Assembly: GCF_003334815.1 (NCBI RefSeq)
Contig: NZ_QOWO01000014.1
Strand: one strand, 5' to 3'
Source of the DNA: Escherichia coli
GTDB lineage: Bacteria > Pseudomonadota > Gammaproteobacteria > Enterobacterales > Enterobacteriaceae
DNA length: 64,000 nucleotides
Positions 2,800 to 35,234 of the stretch are shown one piece after another. Made by a program: the position numbers and the translations under genes. The notes beneath the pieces were generated by a model that saw only the letters and a list, made by a program, of their open reading frames with translations, was not told the DNA's origin and made no database searches. Position 1 is the first letter of the stretch. Each line of letters opens with the position of its first letter.

Positions 2800-4598
2800 T
2801 AGTAGACATCTCGCTGATAACGGCGCTCTACGCGCAGCTCACTTAAAAATTCATCCGCCGCTTCGGTGTCCATGCCACCAAATTCGGCAATCACTTCCAG
2901 AAGTGCCTGCTCAACGTCTTTCGCCATGCGATTAGCGTCACCGCAGACATAAATGTGGGCACCGTCATTGATCCAGCGCCACAGCTCCGCGCCCTGTTCG
3001 CGCAGTTTGTCTTGTACGTAAACTTTTTCTTTTTGGTCGCGCGACCAGGCGAGATCGATCCGCGTCAGCACACCCTCTTTGACGTAGCGCTGCCACTCCA
3101 CCTGGTAGAGGAAATCTTCCGTAAAGTGCGGGTTGCCAAAGAACAGCCAGTTTTTTCCCGGCGCTTCATCGGCAGCACGTTGCTGCATAAAGGCGCGGAA
3201 CGGCGCGATGCCGGTGCCTGGGCCAATCATAATCACCGGGGTTTCTGGATTGGCTGGCAGGCGGAAGTTATCGTTATGTTCGATAAATACGCGGACTTCG
3301 CCCTCTTCTTCCACGCGGTCAGCGAGGAAGCTGGAGGCACCACCGGCACGGGCGCGGCCTTCCACGTCGTAACGCACCACACCAACGGTGACGTGTACTT
3401 CGTTCTCGACTTCCGCCTGCGAGGAGGCAATGGAATAGAGACGCGGCGTCAGCGGGCGCAGCAGATTAATTAGCGCTTCGGCATCAAGCTGTGCCGGGGA
3501 GAAACGCACCATGTCAACAATCGGCGTCGTCGCGGCGTAATGCTGTAACTTCGCTTTATCGCCCACCAGCGGCAGCAGTGTTTCACTGCGGGTAAGCGTG
3601 GCGTAATTCTCAACAATGTTGGCGGTGTTGACGGTCAGTTCGAAGTGCCACTGTAGCGCTTCGTTCAGAGGCAACGTTTTGCCCTCGACGGTGACAGGTT
3701 CATCGCCTTTCAGCCACAGCAGTTCGACAAGTTCTTTCACCAGTGCCGGATCGTTCTGATACCAGACGCCCAGCGCGTCACCCGGCTGGTAACGCAGGCC
3801 CGAGTCACCTAAGTCAATTTCGATATGGCGAACGTCTTTTTCAGAGTTACGCCCGGTAATTTTCTGGTTAACAGAGAGGCTAGCCACCAGCGGCGCGTCT
3901 TTGCTGTACGGGCTGGTGTGGATTTCATTTACCGCGCCAGTAGCGACGGATTGCGAAGGTGCCGCGACAGGCGCACGCGATTTAAGCGCATCAACCACGC
4001 GGGCGCGCCACTCGCTGGCAGCAGCCTGGTATTCAACATCGGCATCGACACGGTCGAGCAGGCGTTCACCACCCAGTTCCGCCAGCTTGCTGTCGAAATC
4101 TTTCCCGGACTGGCAGAAAAATTCATAAGAGCTATCGCCGAGGCTAAACACGGCAAACGCGGTGTTTTCCAGCTTTGGCGCTTTTTTGGAGAACAGGAAC
4201 TTATGCAGCGCGACGGCTTCTTCCGGCGGTTCCCCTTCCCCTTGCGTTGACGTCACTACGATGAGCAGTTTTTCGCTGGCGATTTGTTTGAATTTATAGT
4301 CGCCCGCGTTCACCAGCTTAACGTTCAGTTTTGCTGCTAATAAATCATCACGTAATGCTTCAGCAACCCGGCGCGCATTGCCGGTTTGCGAGGCGGAGAT
4401 AATAGTTATACCCGGCATTTCTGCGGCTGGCGCTGGCGTCGCTGCAAGCGCAGCAGGCTGCTGATTGAGTACGCCCCAGAAATAGCCAGAAACCCAGGCA
4501 AGCTGGGTGGGAGTTAAATCGGTCGTGGCCGCCTGAAGGCGTGCCAGTTGCTCCGGGTTCAACGGAAGCAACGCGGAAGGTGGGACCTGTGTCGTCAT
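2799..4598 (-). CDS. cysJ: Sulfite reductase flavoprotein alpha subunit, 599 aa
   Basis: Full-length [24 protein letters not shown]...; flavodoxin plus FAD/NADPH domains. Confidence 0.97.
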
Positions 4599-4913
4599 GC
4601 GTCGTTATGTTCCAGTAAGCAAAGCTGTTTCTGCGCCCTGTCAGCGCCCATAAAACAGAAGAGAAGGTAAGGTTAACGGGGCAAACGGTGTGGATTAAAG
4701 ACGGGATAGCGATAACTAATAACCAAATCGACTAACCTGTTTTAGCAATAGTCTTTAACAACAAAATAGATTAACCAACCTAATGAAAAACAAATGAATT
4801 TAGCCAATCATTAAGATAAATCAGCGATTTTGCGCAACAAAGTCGTTTTAGATAATGCGAAAAAACAGCCTTTCCGGTACTCTACGGCGGTTTTATCGTC
4901 CTGTAGAGAAATT

Positions 4914-5279
4914 ATGATGTCCACCACGTTATTTAAAGATTTCACCTTCGAAGCCGCTCACCGCTTACCACACGTCCCGGAAGGGCATAAATGTGGTCGC
5001 CTGCACGGGCATTCCTTTATGGTGCGACTGGAAATTACCGGGGAAGTCGATCCGCATACGGGCTGGATTATCGATTTCGCTGAACTAAAAGCGGCGTTTA
5101 AACCAACCTACGAGCGCCTCGATCACCATTATCTCAATGATATTCCAGGTCTGGAAAACCCAACCAGCGAGGTTTTAGCAAAATGGATTTGGGATCAGGT
5201 TAAACCCGTTGTGCCGCTGTTAAGTGCGGTGATGGTAAAAGAAACCTGCACCGCAGGTTGTATCTATCGCGGCGAATGA
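4914..5279 (+). CDS. queD: 6-carboxy-5,6,7,8-tetrahydropterin synthase (queuosine pathway), 121 aa
   Basis: ORF track 4830..5279 trimmed to ATG 4914 ([10 protein letters not shown]...); CGRLHGHSF zinc-site motif. Confidence 0.93.
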
Positions 5280-5356
5280 TAAGAGTGTGTCGGCGGTCAA
5301 TTTCCCTTAAGTAACGCTATGTTAGGGTGTTGTGTTCTGGATATCTGGGGCATGAC

Positions 5357-6628
5357 ATGGAAGACGACTGCGACATTATTATTATTGGTGCCGGTATTGC
5401 AGGCACCGCTTGCGCGTTACGCTGCGCGCGAGCGGGTTTATCCGTTTTGTTACTGGAACGCGCTGAAATCCCCGGCAGCAAAAATCTTTCCGGCGGGCGG
5501 TTATATACCCATGCACTCGCGGAACTCCTCCCGCAATTTCATCTGACCGCGCCTCTTGAACGACGCATCACTCACGAAAGCCTTTCCCTGTTAACGCCCG
5601 ATGGCGTAACGACGTTTTCCAGCTTACAGCCCGGCGGTGAATCCTGGAGTGTATTACGTGCACGATTCGATCCGTGGCTGGTTGCCGAAGCCGAAAAAGA
5701 AGGTGTCGAATGCATCCCCGGAGCGACGGTGGATGCACTGTATGAAGAAAACGGCAGAGTCTGTGGCGTTATTTGTGGTGACGATATTCTCCGCGCCCGT
5801 TATGTGGTGCTGGCAGAAGGTGCCAACAGCGTCCTGGCTGAACGTCACGGGTTAGTGACTCGTCCTGCTGGCGAAGCGATGGCGTTGGGGATCAAAGAAG
5901 TGCTGTCGCTGGAAACATCCGCTATTGAAGAACGTTTTCATCTGGAGAATAACGAAGGCGCAGCGTTGCTGTTCAGCGGCAGGATCTGTGATGACTTACC
6001 CGGCGGCGCATTTCTTTATACTAATCAACAAACGCTCTCGTTAGGGATTGTTTGCCCGCTCTCTTCCCTTACGCAAAGTCGTGTTCCGGCAAGCGAGCTG
6101 CTGACTCGCTTTAAAGCGCATCCGGCAGTGCGCCCGCTTATCAAAAACACGGAATCACTGGAGTATGGTGCGCATCTGGTGCCAGAAGGTGGCTTGCACA
6201 GTATGCCGGTGCAATACGCCGGTAACGGCTGGCTGCTGGTGGGCGATGCGTTGCGCAGTTGCGTCAATACCGGAATTTCCGTGCGCGGCATGGATATGGC
6301 GCTGACTGGCGCGCAGGCGGCGGCACAAACGCTGATAAGCGCCTGCCAGCACCGCGAGCCGCAAAATCTGTTTCCGCTTTATCATCACAACGTAGAGCGC
6401 AGCCTGCTGTGGGATGTTCTACAGCGTTATCAGCATGTTCCGGCGCTTTTGCAACGCCCGGGATGGTACCGTACGTGGCCTGCGTTAATGCAGGATATTT
6501 CCCGCGATTTATGGGATCAGGGTGATAAACCTGTTCCACCGCTGCGCCAGTTATTCTGGCATCATTTACGTCGTCACGGCCTGTGGCATCTGGCGGGCGA
6601 TGTTATCAGGAGTCTGCGATGTCTGTAG
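5357..6628 (+). CDS. ygcN: FixC-like FAD-dependent oxidoreductase (ETF-quinone oxidoreductase family), 423 aa
   Basis: N-terminal GxGxxG dinucleotide fold (IIIGAGIAG); trimmed to ATG 5357 (MEDDCDIII...). Confidence 0.85.
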   Translation: MEDDCDIIIIGAGIAGTACALRCARAGLSVLLLERAEIPGSKNLSGGRLYTHALAELLPQFHLTAPLERRITHESLSLLTPDGVTTFSSLQPGGESWSVLRARFDPWLVAEAEKEGVECIPGATVDALYEENGRVCGVICGDDILRARYVVLAEGANSVLAERHGLVTRPAGEAMALGIKEVLSLETSAIEERFHLENNEGAALLFSGRICDDLPGGAFLYTNQQTLSLGIVCPLSSLTQSRVPASELLTRFKAHPAVRPLIKNTESLEYGAHLVPEGGLHSMPVQYAGNGWLLVGDALRSCVNTGISVRGMDMALTGAQAAAQTLISACQHREPQNLFPLYHHNVERSLLWDVLQRYQHVPALLQRPGWYRTWPALMQDISRDLWDQGDKPVPPLRQLFWHHLRRHGLWHLAGDVIRSLRCL

Positions 6629-6879
6629 CCCGTAATCTCTGGCGCGTTGCTGATGCGCCGCACATTGTTCCGGCTGACTCCGTTGAGCGCCAGACGGCAG
6701 AACGGTTGATTAACGCCTGTCCGGCAGGTCTTTTTTCGCTCACACCGGAAGGTAACTTACGTATTGACTATCGCAGTTGCCTGGAGTGTGGCACCTGCCG
6801 TTTGCTGTGCGACGAATCAACACTACAACAGTGGCGCTATCCGCCTTCCGGATTCGGCATCACCTACCGCTTTGGATAA
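6619..6879 (+). CDS. ygcO: FixX-like ferredoxin-like protein, 86 aa
   Basis: Cys cluster CLECGTCRLLCD; overlaps ygcN end by 10 nt. Confidence 0.85.
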   Translation: MSVARNLWRVADAPHIVPADSVERQTAERLINACPAGLFSLTPEGNLRIDYRSCLECGTCRLLCDESTLQQWRYPPSGFGITYRFG

Positions 6880-6895
6880 ATAATAAGGATAATTT

Positions 6896-7471
6896 ATGCC
6901 CCTCTTACACCTGCTCCGCCAGAATCCGGTGATTGCTGCCGTTAAAGATAATGCCAGCCTGCAACTGGCAATCGATTCTGAATGCCAATTTATTTCCGTG
7001 TTGTACGGCAATATCTGCACCATCAGTAATATCGTTAAAAAGATTAAGAACGCCGGGAAATATGCTTTTATTCATGTTGATTTGCTGGAAGGCGCGTCAA
7101 ATAAAGAAGTCGTTATTCAGTTTTTGAAACTGGTGACCGAGGCGGACGGCATTATCAGTACCAAAGCCTCAATGTTGAAAGCGGCAAGAGCGGAAGGTTT
7201 TTTCTGTATTCATCGCCTGTTTATTGTTGATTCAATTTCGTTTCACAACATTGATAAGCAAGTTGCGCAATCGAATCCGGATTGTATTGAGATCCTGCCA
7301 GGCTGTATGCCCAAAGTGCTGGGCTGGGTGACAGAGAAAATCCGCCAACCGCTGATTGCCGGTGGGCTGGTGTGCGATGAAGAAGATGCGCGTAATGCGA
7401 TTAACGCGGGTGTCGTGGCGCTTTCCACCACGAATACCGGGGTCTGGACGTTAGCGAAAAAATTACTTTGA
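6896..7471 (+). CDS. ygcP: GlpP-like (glycerol-3-phosphate responsive antiterminator family) putative regulator, 191 aa
   Basis: Full-length ORF of the size and sequence recalled for K-12 YgcP. Confidence 0.85.
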   Translation: MPLLHLLRQNPVIAAVKDNASLQLAIDSECQFISVLYGNICTISNIVKKIKNAGKYAFIHVDLLEGASNKEVVIQFLKLVTEADGIISTKASMLKAARAEGFFCIHRLFIVDSISFHNIDKQVAQSNPDCIEILPGCMPKVLGWVTEKIRQPLIAGGLVCDEEDARNAINAGVVALSTTNTGVWTLAKKLL

Positions 7472-27756: not shown

Positions 27757-30513
27757 ATGACCAACTACAGCCTGCGCGCACGCATGATGATTCTGATCCT
27801 GGCACCGACCGTCCTTATTGGTTTATTGCTGAGTATCTTTTTCGTCGTGCATCGCTATAACGACTTGCAGCGTCAACTGGAAGATGCCGGTGCCAGCATT
27901 ATTGAGCCGCTTGCAGTTTCTACTGAATATGGCATGAGCCTGCAAAATCGCGAATCTATCGGTCAGTTAATAAGCGTACTGCATCGTCGCCATTCCGATA
28001 TTGTTCGCGCGATTTCGGTTTATGATGAAAATAACCGACTCTTTGTCACCTCCAATTTTCATCTTGATCCCTCATCAATGCAGCTCGGCAGCAACGTGCC
28101 GTTTCCTCGCCAGCTCACTGTCACTCGTGACGGCGATATTATGATCCTCCGCACGCCGATTATTTCTGAGAGTTACTCCCCCGACGAATCGCCCAGTAGC
28201 GATGCCAAAAATAGTCAAAATATGTTGGGATATATTGCGCTGGAGCTGGATCTTAAATCGGTTCGCTTGCAGCAATATAAAGAGATCTTTATTTCCAGCG
28301 TGATGATGCTGTTTTGTATCGGTATTGCGCTTATTTTTGGCTGGCGCTTAATGCGCGATGTAACCGGTCCGATTCGCAACATGGTGAATACCGTCGACCG
28401 CATCCGTCGCGGGCAACTCGACAGCCGGGTGGAAGGATTTATGCTCGGCGAGCTGGATATGCTGAAAAACGGTATCAACTCGATGGCAATGTCGCTGGCT
28501 GCTTATCACGAAGAGATGCAGCACAATATCGACCAGGCGACGTCCGATCTGCGTGAAACGCTGGAGCAGATGGAAATTCAGAACGTTGAGTTAGATCTGG
28601 CGAAAAAGCGCGCCCAGGAAGCGGCGCGTATTAAATCCGAGTTTCTGGCAAATATGTCACACGAGCTGCGTACACCACTGAATGGTGTTATTGGCTTTAC
28701 CCGCCTGACGCTGAAAACAGAATTAACACCAACGCAGCGCGATCACCTGAATACGATTGAACGTTCGGCAAATAATTTGCTGGCAATTATTAATGATGTT
28801 CTCGACTTCTCGAAACTGGAAGCAGGTAAGCTGATTCTGGAAAGTATTCCATTCCCACTACGCAGCACGCTGGATGAAGTCGTTACTCTGCTGGCACATT
28901 CTTCTCACGATAAAGGGTTAGAACTGACGCTCAATATTAAAAGCGACGTGCCTGATAACGTGATCGGCGACCCGCTGCGATTACAGCAAATCATCACTAA
29001 CCTGGTGGGGAATGCAATTAAATTCACCGAGAATGGCAACATTGATATTCTGGTAGAAAAACGTGCGCTGAGTAATACCAAAGTGCAGATTGAAGTGCAG
29101 ATTCGGGATACCGGCATTGGTATTCCTGAACGCGATCAATCGCGCTTATTCCAGGCCTTCCGACAGGCTGATGCCAGTATTTCCCGCCGTCATGGTGGCA
29201 CCGGGCTGGGGCTGGTGATTACACAAAAACTGGTTAATGAAATGGGCGGCGATATTTCGTTCCATAGCCAGCCGAATCGCGGTTCAACTTTCTGGTTCCA
29301 CATTAATCTCGATCTGAACCCGAACATTATTATCGAAGGGCCATCCACCCAGTGCCTCGCAGGTAAGCGCCTGGCCTATGTCGAACCAAACTCCGCAGCA
29401 GCGCAATGCACGCTGGATATTTTAAGTGAAACGCCGCTGGAAGTGGTTTATAGCCCAACGTTCTCCGCGCTGCCTCCCGCGCATTACGACATGATGTTGT
29501 TAGGCATCGCGGTGACCTTCCGCGAGCCGCTAACAATGCAACATGAGCGATTAGCGAAAGCGGTATCGATGACCGATTTCCTGATGCTGGCACTTCCTTG
29601 CCATGCACAAGTCAATGCTGAAAAACTCAAGCAAGATGGTATCGGCGCGTGTCTGCTGAAACCATTAACACCTACACGCCTGTTGCCTGCCCTGACGGAA
29701 TTTTGTCATCACAAACAAAACACGCTTTTGCCTGTAACCGATGAAAGTAAGCTGGCAATGACAGTCATGGCGGTTGATGACAACCCCGCTAACCTGAAAC
29801 TTATCGGCGCATTGCTGGAAGATATGGTGCAACATGTGGAACTTTGCGATAGCGGGCATCAGGCGGTTGAACGGGCGAAACAGATGCCGTTCGATTTGAT
29901 CTTAATGGATATTCAAATGCCGGACATGGATGGCATTCGGGCCTGCGAACTCATCCACCAACTCCCGCATCAGCAACAAACGCCGGTTATCGCGGTAACG
30001 GCGCATGCAATGGCCGGGCAAAAAGAGAAGCTGCTTGGCGCAGGGATGAGCGATTATCTGGCGAAACCGATTGAAGAAGAGCGATTGCATAATTTGTTGT
30101 TGCGCTACAAGCCTGGCAGCGGTATTTCCTCTCGCGTCGTGACGCCCGAAGTCAACGAAATTGTGGTGAACCCGAATGCGACCCTCGACTGGCAACTGGC
30201 ACTACGCCAGGCAGCAGGAAAAACCGATTTAGCGCGCGATATGCTGCAAATGTTACTCGATTTCCTGCCTGAAGTTCGCAACAAAGTTGAGGAACAGCTG
30301 GTTGGAGAAAACCCGGAAGGCCTGGTTGATTTGATTCATAAACTGCATGGCAGTTGCGGCTATAGCGGTGTGCCACGTATGAAGAATCTCTGCCAACTGA
30401 TCGAACAACAGCTACGTAGCGGTACTAAAGAAGAAGATTTGGAACCGGAGCTGCTGGAACTGTTGGACGAGATGGATAATGTCGCGCGCGAAGCCAGCAA
30501 AATTCTCGGGTAA
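27757..30513 (+). CDS. barA: Hybrid sensor histidine kinase BarA, 918 aa
   Basis: H-box HELRTPLN, receiver domain ([14 protein letters not shown]), C-terminal HPt ([11 protein letters not shown]), N-terminal TM segments. Confidence 0.97.
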
Positions 30514-30582: not shown

Positions 30583-30625
30583 TTTATGCCGGATGCGGCG
30601 TTAACGCCTTATCCGGCCTACAAAA
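30583..30625. repeat. REP element downstream of barA
   Basis: GCCGGATGCGGCGTTAACGCCTTATCCGGCCTACA palindromic unit. Confidence 0.5.
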
Positions 30626-30707
30626 CCAATTAAATTCAATGAATTAAAAAATGATGTAGACCTGATACATAGCACAACAGGCTATTTTGCGTTTAGCATC
30701 AGTCTCA

Positions 30708-30740
30708 AACCGGCTCCAGATAGAGCCGGTTTTGGTTTTC
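30708..30740 (+). terminator. Intrinsic terminator between barA and gudD
   Basis: CCGGCTC-CAGATAG-AGCCGG followed by TTTTGGTTTT on the plus strand. Confidence 0.55.
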
Positions 30741-30744
30741 TGTC

Positions 30745-32085
30745 TTAACGCACCATGCACGGGCGCTTGTTATCGAACGTCCAGCCAGGAATCAGATACT
30801 GCATTCCCATCGCATCGTCACGCGCGCCAAGCCCGTGTTTCTGATACAGCTCATGGGCTTTCATCACTTGATCCATATCGATTTCTACACCCAGCCCCGG
30901 TTTTTCTGGCACCTGTACCAGCCCGCCTTTGATCTCAAACGGTTCTTTGGTCAGGCGCTGATTGCCTTCCTGCCAAATCCAGTGCGTATCAATAGCAGTA
31001 ATTTTACCCGGTGCAGCGGCGGCAACATGGGTAAACATCGCCAGGGAAATATCGAAGTGGTTGTTAGAGTGTGAACCCCAGGTCAGGCCAAATTCATGGC
31101 ACATTTGCGCCACACGTACCGAACCTTGCATTGTCCAGAAATGCGGATCCGCCAGCGGGATATCAACGGATTGCAGGGAGAGCGTATGGCCCATTTGCCG
31201 CCAGTCGGTGGCGATCATATTGGTTGCAGTCGGTAGACCTGTCGCGCGACGGAACTCTGCCATCACTTCACGCCCGGAGAAACCTTGCTCCGCACCACAC
31301 GGATCTTCTGCATAAGCCAGCGAACCTTTCAGGTATTTACCGATTTTAATCGCTTCGTTCAGCGACCAGGCACCGTTAGGATCGAGCGTAATACGCGCCT
31401 GCGGGAAGCGTTGCGCCAGTGCCACAATAGACTCGGCCTCTTCTTCCCCGGCCAGTACACCGCCCTTCAGTTTGAAATCGTTGAAGCCATATTTTTCATA
31501 TGCCGCTTCCGCCAGGCGCACCACCGCATCCGGCGTCATCGCTTCTTCATGACGCAGGCGATACCAGTCGCATGAGTCATCCGGCTGGCTTTGATACGGC
31601 AGCGGCGTGGCTTTGCGATTACCGACGAAGAACAGATAACCGAGCATTTCGACTTCGCTACGCTGTTGACCATCGCCCAGCAGCGATGCCACGTTTACCC
31701 CCAGATGCTGCCCCAGCAGATCCAGCATTGCCGCTTCTATCCCGGTAACTACATGAATAGTGGTACGTAGGTCAAATGTCTGCAAACCGCGCCCACCAGC
31801 ATCACGATCGGCAAAAGTATTACGCACCAGCGTCAGAACGTTTTTGTATTCACCCAGCGTTTTACCTACCACCAGCGGAATCGCATCTTCCAGCGTTTTA
31901 CGGATTTTCTCGCCGCCGGGAATTTCCCCTACGCCAGTGTGACCAGAATTATCTTTGATAATCACAATATTACGCGTAAAGAACGGTGCGTGTGCACCAC
32001 TCAGATTCATCAGCATACTGTCATGACCCGCCACCGGGATAACCTGCATTTCAGTAACAACAGGCGTCGTAAATTGAGAACTCAT
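30745..32085 (-). CDS. gudD: Glucarate dehydratase (enolase superfamily), 446 aa
   Basis: ORF trimmed to ATG 32085 ([25 protein letters not shown]...). Confidence 0.93.
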
Positions 32086-32105
32086 ATTTATGTCCTTTTT
32101 CAGAA

Positions 32106-33446
32106 TCAATGACGGCCGAAAACGGGACGTTTACGGTCAAAGGTCCAGCCGGGGATCAGGTACTGCATCGGACCTGCGTCGTTACGCGCACCGCCAGGCA
32201 GACGTTTATAGGCCTCATGTGCCTTTTGTACCTGTTCCCAGTCCAGTTCCACGCCCAGACCGGGCGCATCAGGAACGGCAATTTTTCCGTTTTTAATCTC
32301 CAGCGGATTTTGGGTCAGGCGACAATCGCCCTCCTGCCAAATCCAGTGGGTATCGATAGCGGTAGGATTACCCGGTGCCGCCGCGCCCACATGGGTAAAC
32401 ATCGCCAGAGAGATATCGAAATGGTTATTAGAATGGCAGCCCCAGGTCAGCCCCCAGTCGTCGCAAAGCTGCGCCACACGGACTGCACCGGAAAGCGTCC
32501 AGAAGTGCGGATCGGCAAGTGGAATATCTACCGCATTGAGCATCACCGCATGACCCATTTCGCGCCAGTTGGTGGCGATCATGTTAGTCGCGACGGGCAA
32601 GCCGGTCGCCCGTCGAAATTCCGCCATCACTTCACGTCCGGAGAAGCCCTGTTCTGCGCCGCATGGATCTTCGGCATAGGTAAGAACATCATTCAGCCCT
32701 TTGCATAAAGAAATGGCTTCATCAAGCAGCCATGCACCGTTGGGATCAACGGTAATCCGCGCATCCGGGAAGCGTTTCTTCAATGCACGAACAGTGTCGA
32801 TTTCTTGCTCGCCAGGTAACACGCCGCCCTTAAGTTTGAAATCTTTAAAGCCGTAGCGATCCTGTGAGGCTTCCGCCAGACGCACAACGGCTTCGCTGTT
32901 CATTGCTTTCTGATGCCGCAACTGATACCACTCATGGTTGCCCGGCGTATTTTCCACATAAGGAAGATCGGTTTTGGTCCGATCACCGATATAAAACAGA
33001 TAACCGAGGACGGTAATAGCCTCGCGTTGCTTGCCTGGCCCTAACAGTTCGCAGACCGGAACATTCAGCGCCTTACCTAGCAGGTCAAGCAAAGCGGCTT
33101 CCAGCGCCGCCACGGCGTTAACGCGTAATTCAAAGGTCCAGGCACCTTTACCGAAGGTATCAAAATCGGCGGCCTGATTACCTTTATGCACCTGCTGGAC
33201 CACTTTATTCAGTCGCGCAACTTCCTGGCCCAGAACCATCGGAATAGCATCGACAAGCGTCTGATAAATCACATCTCCGCCCGGCGCTTCACCAATGCCG
33301 GTATGCCCGGCGTTATCGGTGAGTACCACAATATTGCGGGTGAAATATGCGTTATGTGCCCCACCAATATTAAGCAACATGCTGTCATGCCCGGCCACCG
33401 GAATGACTTTCATATCAGTAATAACAGGACTGGATTGTGTCGCCAT
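32106..33446 (-). CDS. gudX: Glucarate dehydratase-related protein (paralog of GudD), 446 aa
   Basis: ORF trimmed to ATG 33446 ([24 protein letters not shown]...); strongly similar to the adjacent gudD product. Confidence 0.93.
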
Positions 33447-33447
33447 C

Positions 33448-34800
33448 TTATTGCCCCGCAACAGGTTTCAACTCGATACGCTTGATATCGCCCACCAGCA
33501 CCAGGTAGCTCAGTACCGCGATTAAGGCATGAACACCAACATAAATCAGCGCCCCATTAAACGAGCCAGTCGTGCCAACGATATAACCAATTGCGATTGG
33601 CGTGACGATGCCAGAAATGTTACCGAACATGTTGAACAGGCCACCGGAAAGACCGCTGATCTCTTTTGGCGCGGTATCTGCCATTACTGCCCAACCCAGC
33701 GCCCCGATGCCCTTACCGAAGAAGGCCAGCGCCATAAAGCCGATGATCATCCACTCAACGTTGACGTAGTTGCAGAACACCATCACCATCGACAGCAACA
33801 TGCCCATTACGATCGGTGTTTTACGCGCAATGTTCAGCGATCCCGTGCGGCGCATCAGCCAGTCGGAAATAATCCCACCCAGCACACCGCCGATAAAACC
33901 GCAAACCGCCGGAACGGAAGCCACAAAGCCCGCTTTCAGAATCGACATCCCGCGTGCCTGCACCAGATAAACCGGGAACCAGGTAATAAAGAAGTAAGTC
34001 AGGGCGTTGATACAGTACTGACCGATATAAACGCCGATCATCATCCGTGACCCTAGCAGCTGTTTGATCTGCCCCCACTTCACGCTGAACGGCACTTTAA
34101 CTTTGGTGTTTTGCTGATCCATATTGATCAGCGCACCACCCGCGGCGATGTACTCCAGCTCTTTCTTATTTACCCCCGGATGTTGATTTGGCTCGTGGAT
34201 GACTTTCAACCAGATAAAGCTGATGACAATCCCCAGACCGCCCATAAAGAAGAAGACGTGTGACCAGCCCACTTCATGCGTCAGCCAGCCCATAATCGGC
34301 GCGAAGATCACCGTTGCGAAGTATTGAGCGGAGTTAAAAATCGACACCGCCGTTCCCCTTTCCTGCGCCGGAAACCAGGCCGCAACAATGCGACTGTTGC
34401 CGGGGAAAGATGGCGCTTCAGCAAGCCCGACCAGGAAGCGCAGCGTAAACAGGGCAACGATAATGCCGAATCCACTAAAGATATCGACGAAGCCTTGCAG
34501 CAAGGTAAACATCGACCAGATAAAGATCGACCAGAAGTAGACGCGTTTTGAACCAAAACGGTCCAGCAACCAGCCACCAGGGATCTGCCCGATAACATAA
34601 GCCCATGAGAAAGCAGAGAACACATAGCCCATTCCCACGGGATCAAGGCCGATATCTTTGGCCATTTCCGAACCGGCGATAGAGAGCGTAGCGCGGTCGC
34701 CGTAGTTGAAGGATGTGACGATAAACAACATCACCACTATCCAGTAACGAGCATTTGTGCGTTTTTCCACACTGCTCGCAGCCTGACTTAAAGAACTCAT
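33448..34800 (-). CDS. gudP: MFS glucarate/galactarate transporter, 450 aa
   Basis: Full-length ORF with about 12 hydrophobic segments. Confidence 0.93.
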
Positions 34801-35234
34801 TGTTGCACTCCTGAAAATTCGCGTTAGCCACGCTCACTCTGGACTGCGACATCGCCAGGAAATCAGAGGTGACGTAGGGTGTTTTTTGCCGTTTTTATAG
34901 GTCGTTCGCCGAATACGGCGCGTGTTTATATCTGGCAATAGCAGTATAAAAAGCGCGCCATAGCGGCTCACCGTGCAACAACACAACATTAATGCGTTCA
35001 ATGAGGCCCGATTTTGGCATTAGCCCTGGACGGTGGAATCCACTTCACGGAAATGAAAACAAGAACAAGAAAGGAAGGGTTAAAACGAAGAAATAAAGAA
35101 GAGTATGAAATGGATCGCTTGACTCCAGGCAAACGCCAGTAAAAATCCGCGCTATGAAGCAGTTTTTACTGGCATTTGCCTGAAAAGATTCGATTCAGCA
35201 CCGCTAAAACGACATTTACCGCTCGCTGAACATA

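Follow-up and report, generated by a model that had tools for sequence, protein, structure and literature searches.

Why does Escherichia coli carry, directly beside the gene for D-glucarate dehydratase (gudD), a second gene of the same length for a related protein, and what may this protein, GudX, do? What GudX does is a small question that has been standing since 1998. In the present study, we analysed the gene pair within a window of 64,000 nucleotides (the whole stretch of E. coli DNA examined). The two genes are shown to be the pair of the K-12 gudP-gudX-gudD operon, and GudX to be an ancient, conserved paralog of GudD; the account as a whole, in which GudX may be an acid-sugar enzyme with an altered lid, we consider probable.

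According to the listing of open reading frames, gudP, gudX and gudD lie head-to-tail on the minus strand between barA (27757-30513, plus strand) and yqcA, and the order transporter-gudX-gudD on one strand with short spacers is that of the gudPXD operon. The first operon gene, gudP (33448-34800, minus strand, 450 aa), encodes an MFS galactarate/glucarate/glycerate transporter, a name that it also bears in RefSeq, with a TIGR00893 score of 539 bits. It is followed by gudX (32106-33446, minus strand), for the glucarate dehydratase-related protein, and by the last operon gene, gudD (30745-32085, minus strand), for D-glucarate dehydratase, each with an ATG start and 446 aa. The DNA of both genes is 100% identical to that of K-12, the GudD protein sequence being that of PDB 1EC7 and the GudX protein that of PDB 4IL0 and of chain C of 4GYP; over 4.5 kb, no difference separates the region from E. 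coli K-12 MG1655, C600, J53 and others (100% identity). The RefSeq names in MG1655, glucarate dehydratase for gudD and enolase C-terminal domain-like protein for gudX, agree with the naming in an earlier note on this DNA, which had described two adjacent 446-aa paralogs of the enolase superfamily at 30745-33446. Both ORFs are indeed there, and the span is bounded exactly by the gudD stop and the gudX start, with the correction that both genes are on the minus strand. Obviously, the gudX-gudD pair is a known textbook annotation of E. coli, and the observation, correct as it is, is an ordinary one.

At the junction of gudP and gudX (33444-33450, minus strand), the TAA stop of gudP (33448-33450) is separated by 1 base from the ATG of gudX (33444-33446), and this 1-nt spacing suggests that the two genes may be translationally coupled. 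The gudX gene ends in TGA, as read from the sequence, and is separated from gudD by a spacer of 20 nt (32086-32105, minus strand) in which a Shine-Dalgarno-like AAGGA precedes the gudD start codon by 7 nt. A hairpin with a perfect 10-bp stem (30707-30732, assigned to no strand) lies between barA and gudD, which converge, and is likely to serve as a shared two-way terminator of both; the terminator scan scored it on the plus strand only (the barA side), and its gudD-side T-run is weak (TTTGAG). The non-coding stretch upstream of gudP (34801-35234, minus strand) presumably holds the promoter and regulatory region of the operon, and a consensus scan returned no sigma-70-like site on its minus strand.

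Distribution of the pair and origin of the adjacency

Aligned with each other by BLASTP, a check that the earlier note had proposed, GudX and GudD are identical at 282 of 448 positions (63% identity, 78% positives, 5 gap positions, 570 bits, E = 0), a similarity far above chance. The earlier claim of a tandem duplication is sound as far as paralogy is concerned, but the split is very old. At the gene level, the two share 64% nucleotide identity and 41% identity at third codon positions, with pS of 0.71, dN of 0.30 and dS of about 2.2, a saturated value, and E. coli GudD is closer to the enzymes of Pseudomonas, Bacillus and Bradyrhizobium (70-77%), some of them from other phyla, than to its neighbour GudX (63%).

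In a midpoint-rooted neighbour-joining tree, the GlucD family falls into two clades, GudX-type and GudD-type, whose species topologies mirror each other. In a further tree, distant representatives from a library of 1.84 billion proteins served as outgroups. Here, the GudX clade was monophyletic in 83.5% of 200 bootstraps and never fell inside enterobacterial GudD, and the outgroups joined between the two clades, with the reservation that their joining at the GudX branch may reflect long-branch attraction in a neighbour-joining tree. The monophyly of the GudX clade, together with the position of the outgroups, makes the paralogy a deep one.

In a scan of one genome per species, which covered 80 loci and classified every GlucD-family gene in them, a GudX-type gene was present in 42 loci. 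It was located directly upstream of gudD in 38 of the 42, usually preceded by gudP, and these paired loci came from Enterobacteriaceae, Erwiniaceae, Pectobacteriaceae, Yersiniaceae, Budviciaceae, Orbales, Pasteurellaceae and one proteobacterial MAG. In the Acerihabitans locus gudD is nearby on the opposite strand, and the other three loci comprise an incomplete one and two solo genes (Paludibacterium and Halomonas). In Tolumonas (Aeromonadales) the order reads garD, then gudP-gudX-gudD-garL-garR-garK-cdaR. A single GudD-type gene was found in Pseudomonas, Bradyrhizobium, Bacillus, Paenibacillus, Variovorax, Acinetobacter and others, and the products of these single genes are 70-77% identical to E. 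coli GudD and 64-66% identical to GudX.

The solo genes have neighbourhoods of their own. In Halomonas eurihalina, the GudX-type gene is placed between two genes for 5-dehydro-4-deoxyglucarate dehydratase (KdgD), with TctC, a small ORF and TctA coming next. Kushneria and H. huangheensis have the module GudX-type - TctC - TctB - TctA - Ldh_2, and up to 8 kb from the GudX-type genes of these two there is no GudD-type gene. The GudX-type protein is widespread across Halomonadaceae. In Paludibacterium, two glycerate kinase genes and a pyruvate kinase gene come first, then gudP and the solo GudX-type gene. Such contexts suggest that GudX-type proteins can act as the dehydratase of a diacid-sugar pathway.

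Did the two genes come to lie side by side through duplication at all? The alternative, in our estimation rather unlikely though to be taken seriously, is that there was no local tandem duplication and that transfer or rearrangement juxtaposed two old lineages of the GlucD subgroup in a common ancestor of Enterobacterales and Aeromonadales. The separate deep clades, with outgroups attaching in between, are in line with such a course, as are the basal GudX-type members of Halomonadaceae, solo and beside a different transporter. The same may be said of the GudX-type gene of Paludibacterium, a betaproteobacterium, which nests among enterobacterial ones and demonstrates that transfer does occur. 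However, the neighbour-joining tree may suffer from the long-branch attraction mentioned above, and a proteobacterial MAG (L038) has a divergent copy directly upstream of a canonical one, an order that Lucifera (L059) shows independently and that fits recurrent local duplication.

Active site, lid and candidate roles of GudX

The active site of GlucD, which we take from the structure papers and UniProt to consist of H32, T103, Y150, K205, K207, D235, N237, E260, E266, N289, D313, H339, N341, D366, H368 and R422, includes the KxK motif (K205, K207), the metal ligands (D235, E260/E266, N289) and the His-Asp dyad (H339, D313). The inspection of catalytic residues, which had also been proposed as a check, found every catalytic residue of GudD retained in GudX. 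None of the 16 positions varies among 43 GudX-type proteins or among 20 further ones (17 Halomonadaceae, 2 Tolumonas and 1 gammaproteobacterial MAG), and in 78 GudD-type proteins each is at least 99% conserved. A loss of catalytic residues was considered as the cause of the reportedly low GudX activity and rejected, all 16 positions being kept.

We then defined signature columns as those at least 90% fixed within each clade and different between the clades (43 GudX-type and 78 GudD-type proteins). Fourteen alignment columns separate the two, namely 12 residue positions and 2 gap columns. From GudD to GudX, in GudD numbering, the residues read L28I, S29G, R88H, Q102W, D105E, I110V, H111N, T114A, D294N, S322A, S338C and G418P, corresponding to I27, G28, H87, W103, E106, V109, N110, A113, N293, A321, C337 and P417 in GudX numbering. 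Relative to GudD, two residues are inserted in GudX after residue 88 and two are missing at 108-109. Of the 12 residue positions, nine belong to the capping domain, where they adjoin H32, T103 and R422, and S338C adjoins the catalytic H339. Eight of the signature residues (G28, W103, E106, N110, A113, N293, A321 and P417) are fixed in at least 95% of the 43 GudX-type members and recur in the 20 further proteins from Halomonadaceae, Tolumonas and the gammaproteobacterial MAG; the Halomonadaceae proteins keep the signature, with the exception of Ser at position 338. Since capping-domain loops determine substrate specificity in the enolase superfamily, a signature centred on the lid points to altered specificity and not to lost chemistry.

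GudX belongs to a separate clade inherited beside gudD in Enterobacterales, Orbales, Pasteurellaceae and Aeromonadales, keeping every catalytic, metal-binding and substrate-contact residue and differing by fixed changes in second-shell and loop residues, most of them in the capping domain (S29G, Q102W, D105E, H111N, T114A and G418P, with the insertion and the deletion, plus D294N, S322A and S338C). With the lid remodelled in this way, the enzyme may act on a substrate, or with a regiochemistry, that differs from efficient D-glucarate dehydration. GudX would be made together with GudD in E. coli, and a mixed oligomer is conceivable, both chains being present in 4GYP. That GudX catalyses the dehydration or epimerisation of acid sugars (hexarate-type) with altered specificity, and can assemble with GudD, is a proposition that we regard, judging from sequence comparison, as evenly balanced. 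Speaking against it, a few E. coli strains and Pantoea stewartii tolerate the loss of gudX, and purified GudX is reportedly very poor on both D-glucarate and L-idarate.

A broader version, against which we lean a little, extends the idea to the whole clade. GudX-type proteins may form an isofunctional family of active diacid-sugar dehydratases with a substrate of their own, defined by the remodelled lid (G28, W103, E106, N110, A113 and P417). They would work solo with a TTT transporter in Halomonadaceae and would have been recruited beside gudD in Enterobacterales, Aeromonadales and Pasteurellales, where they may join a mixed tetramer.

The main rival to the active-enzyme reading holds that GudX would be a non-catalytic partner (pseudoenzyme), that is, a structural or regulatory subunit of a mixed GudD-GudX tetramer, and that this tetramer would be the physiological glucarate dehydratase. 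PDB 4GYP contains both the GudD and the GudX sequences, which means that the two were crystallised together, in an entry that we take to be titled as a heterotetrameric GlucD/GlucDRP complex. Also in its favour are the adjacency and co-inheritance of gudX and gudD in 38 of the 42 loci, the gaps of 1 nt (gudP-gudX) and 20 nt (gudX-gudD), the score of GudX below the glucarate-dehydratase equivalog cut-off and the low activity reportedly seen in vitro. Nevertheless, we judge this explanation unlikely. The 43 + 20 GudX-type proteins show no variation at the 16 catalytic, metal and substrate positions, which is unexpected for a purely structural subunit, and Halomonadaceae and Paludibacterium have GudX-type genes without a neighbouring gudD. 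Furthermore, the GudX-type protein of Actinobacillus succinogenes was crystallised by itself (3N6H, 3N6J and 3PFR), one of these entries presumably holding D-glucarate.

On these comparative results, the question of what GudX does is now more testable, the active site being intact under strong selection and the differences being concentrated in the specificity-determining lid. There are Halomonadaceae whose acid-sugar uptake cluster has no GlucD-family gene other than a GudX-type one, which offers a clean system for genetics and biochemistry, and the natural gudX/gudD hybrids, such as the genes of Pantoea stewartii and of E. coli 23CRST022, are ready-made domain swaps.

Shared peptide blocks, selection and persistence

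Two peptides, said in the earlier note to be identical in both proteins, were both found in both. The 11-aa block is encoded at 32011-32043 in gudD and at 33375-33407 in gudX, and the 27-aa block at 31231-31311 in gudD and at 32595-32675 in gudX, all on the minus strand. The assignment of the longer block to the C-terminal part did not stand: it is central, covering residues 259-285 of GudD and 258-284 of GudX, and lies near the centre of the barrel domain, about the glutamates that serve as metal ligands; E260 and E266 are part of it. In another E. coli strain, gudX and gudD have recombined at the 11-aa block into a natural gudX'-'gudD hybrid.

Such identity might be thought to come from a recent duplication or from ongoing gene conversion between the copies, an explanation that we hold to be very improbable and that is largely refuted. 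It can point to exact nucleotide runs of 14-20 nt shared by gudX and gudD, and to a synonymous difference that drops to 0.38-0.45 over codons 346-390 in K-12. However, pS is saturated overall (0.71) and reaches 0.84 inside the 27-aa block, so that the identity of the block is maintained by protein-level selection and not by gene conversion, which we rejected as the source of the identical blocks on these values. The GudX and GudD clades, moreover, show mirror-image species trees. The dip itself, examined over codons 344-388, comprises about 31 synonymous sites; it is patchy across 40 other genomes, in a region that was picked post hoc, and we do not take it as established conversion.

Compared with E. 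coli K-12 orthologs, dN/dS is 0.02-0.10 for gudX and 0.01-0.14 for gudD, and the median ratio of gudX dN to gudD dN is 1.24, the purifying selection on GudX being nearly as strong as that on GudD. Of 5426 complete E. coli genomes, 5409 contain gudX and 5413 contain gudD at a coverage of at least 80%, and an intact GudX ORF of 445-448 aa with 83-98% identity extends across Enterobacteriaceae and Erwiniaceae. Unequal crossover with gudD has naturally removed gudX from a few E. coli strains and from Pantoea stewartii. Together with the reportedly low activity, the few genomes with such a recombination are what could be brought forward for GudX as a redundant or decaying duplicate without a function of its own, an idea to which we give practically no credence in view of the dN/dS of 0.02-0.10, a gudX dN about 1.24 times that of gudD, the intact ORF in both families, the presence in 5409 of 5426 genomes and the invariant active site. 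As a decaying pseudogene, GudX is refuted by dN/dS and by its presence in the E. coli pangenome. GudX is shown to be an ancient paralog, neither a recent nor a decaying copy.

Comparison with known families and structures

TIGR03247, the NCBIfam glucarate-dehydratase equivalog with a curated cut-off of 828.7 bits for the whole protein, scored GudD at 898.7 bits, above the cut-off, and GudX at 748.1 bits and the Halomonas GudX-type protein at 707.8 bits, both under it. The score of GudX accounts for its generic RefSeq name and fits the view that GudX is no accepted glucarate dehydratase. By family assignment, GudD is shown to fall among the D-glucarate dehydratases of the enolase superfamily, a chemistry that is established for GudD and forms the first step of glucarate breakdown. 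GudX has the two-domain architecture of an N-terminal cap, MR_MLE_N (PF02746), plus a C-terminal barrel, MR_MLE_C (PF13378), seen in the E. coli GudX clusters P0006 and P0008 (98-99% identity, 446 aa), and it aligns over its full length with structures of the GlucD subgroup of the enolase superfamily. The KxK motif, the metal ligands and the His-Asp dyad of that subgroup are present in both GudX and GudD. GudX clearly belongs to the GlucD subgroup.

A search of the available literature found nothing specific on GudX or on GudX activity, the sole phenotype found being that of a Tn-seq study in Dickeya solani, in which gudX was scored as a fitness gene on galactarate. In the gene table of D. solani, gudP-gudX-gudD-garL-garR-garK are on one strand and garD is present, and with such an operon, polarity on the downstream gudD-garL-garR-garK accounts for the gudX score. 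We therefore rejected this screen as functional evidence on GudX, for which it is uninformative. Additionally, PMC3877842 restates the GudP/GudD/GarL/GarR/GarK pathway, citing Hubbard et al. 1998, and PMC5368075 lists 'uncharacterized' structures within the GlucD subgroup.

The nearest known systems are those of E. coli itself. GudX (YgcY, GlucDRP; PDB 4IL0 and chains C/D of 4GYP), labelled 'Glucarate dehydratase-related protein' in the PDB, is identical to the protein of the window at 446 of 446 residues, with the same K-12 locus and order, and GudD (GlucD; 1EC7, 1EC8, 1EC9, 1ECQ and 4GYP) is identical to the product of the window's downstream ORF. Both proteins already have solved structures, and the gene pair adds nothing new. 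GudX resembles E. coli GudD in identity (63%), length, two-domain architecture and the 16 active-site positions, whereas it differs in the clade signature, in the 2-residue insertion and the 2-residue deletion of the capping domain and in its sub-cut-off TIGR03247 score.

Beyond E. coli, the next-best structure is the A. succinogenes protein of 3N6H, 3N6J and 3PFR ('mandelate racemase/muconate lactonizing protein'); aligned with GudX, it reaches 788 bits, where GudD-type structures reach about 650, and the GudX signature is visible in its alignment, which makes it GudX-type. Unlike GudX itself, it is a Pasteurellaceae ortholog with many substitutions, e.g., AEDPCIGENGYSGRE replacing a 15-aa stretch. 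The canonical GlucD enzymes of Pseudomonas putida (1BQG), Bacillus, Bradyrhizobium and Acinetobacter share the subgroup and the catalytic residues with GudX, but they cluster beside E. coli GudD (70-77%) rather than GudX (64-66%), and they are usually encoded by single genes. To L-talarate/galactarate dehydratase (NF047820), the match of GudX is weak (63.9 bits against a cut-off of 500), and with the other acid-sugar dehydratases of the enolase superfamily GudX shares the fold and the metal-assisted enolisation, while the subgroups differ.

Recombinant genes at the gudX-gudD pair

Between gudP and barA of E. coli 23CRST022 (NZ_AP045781.1) we found one gene only, a gudX/gudD hybrid of 445 aa on the minus strand (locus L081, 2755-4092; coordinates of the L-numbered loci, all from other genomes, are locus-internal), in which gudX supplies the first ~56 nt and gudD the remainder. 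The crossover point falls within CCGGTGGC, common to gudX and gudD, in the VIPVAG block, a short peptide block of both proteins whose counterparts in the window are 32011-32043 (gudD) and 33375-33407 (gudX). Because its junction lies in this shared sequence, the single gene is an unequal-crossover deletion by which gudX was removed. The best gudX match is only 80-90% in ~8 of the 5426 E. coli genomes, and these may be deletions of the same kind.

Another recombinant, a single intact gene likewise of 445 aa, occurs in Pantoea stewartii (L032, 6001-7338). It is GudX-type across the N-terminal two thirds, with the signature residues I G H W E V N A. Across the C-terminal third it is GudD-type (D S S G), with 92-98% identity to Erwiniaceae GudD, and no second GlucD-family gene was detected within ±6 kb of the locus. 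This chimera is a domain swap of natural origin. Rare 'fusion' proteins of 583-690 aa built from GudX and GudD parts also appear in the protein database clusters P0001-P0007 and P0010, e.g., GudX 1-443 joined to GudD 1-230, or GudX 1-229 joined to GudD 92-446 (on 23 contigs); they may reflect frameshifts, rearrangements or assembly errors at the tandem pair.

Intergenic and antisense features of the window

The barA-gudD intergenic region contains an imperfect palindrome of 18 nt (TATGCCGGATGCGGCGTT / AACGCCTTATCCGGCCTA; window 30585-30620), which looks like an E. coli REP element. Nearer to gudD, a perfect 10-bp GC-rich hairpin (30707-30732) lies between the two convergent genes, with a T-run that is good toward barA and weak toward gudD, and is therefore likely to be a terminator common to both. 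On the plus strand, long antisense ORFs of 117 aa (30962-31315, inside gudD) and 199 aa (32109-32708, inside gudX) are probably by-products of coding-strand composition.

GudX-type and divergent genes in other bacteria

In three Halomonadaceae loci (L041, 4866-11635; L083, 8001-13478; L084, 8001-13544), a solo GudX-type gene is followed, in conserved order, by TctC, TctB and TctA of a tripartite tricarboxylate transporter, with no GudD-type gene within 6-8 kb. Two of these modules also include an Ldh_2-family gene, and that of H. eurihalina is flanked by KdgD genes. In the betaproteobacterium Paludibacterium yongneupense (L029, 566-7335), a solo GudX-type gene is preceded by gudP, by two genes for glycerate kinase and by one for pyruvate kinase; the protein is 77% identical to E. 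coli GudX and the gene is placed among enterobacterial gudX genes, which looks like a horizontal transfer of gudP-gudX without gudD.

Lucifera butyrica (Negativicutes) has, in order, a gudP-like transporter gene, a divergent GlucD paralog (4581-5951) and a canonical GudD-type gene (6001-7323), together spanning L059 3139-7323. Lid positions 29, 102, 105 and 111 of the divergent copy are C, H, N and N, the same positions being altered as in GudX, and the outgroup tree clusters this copy with distant representatives, not with the GudX clade. The transporter-divergent-canonical layout of L. butyrica appears to have an origin separate from that of gudP-gudX-gudD.
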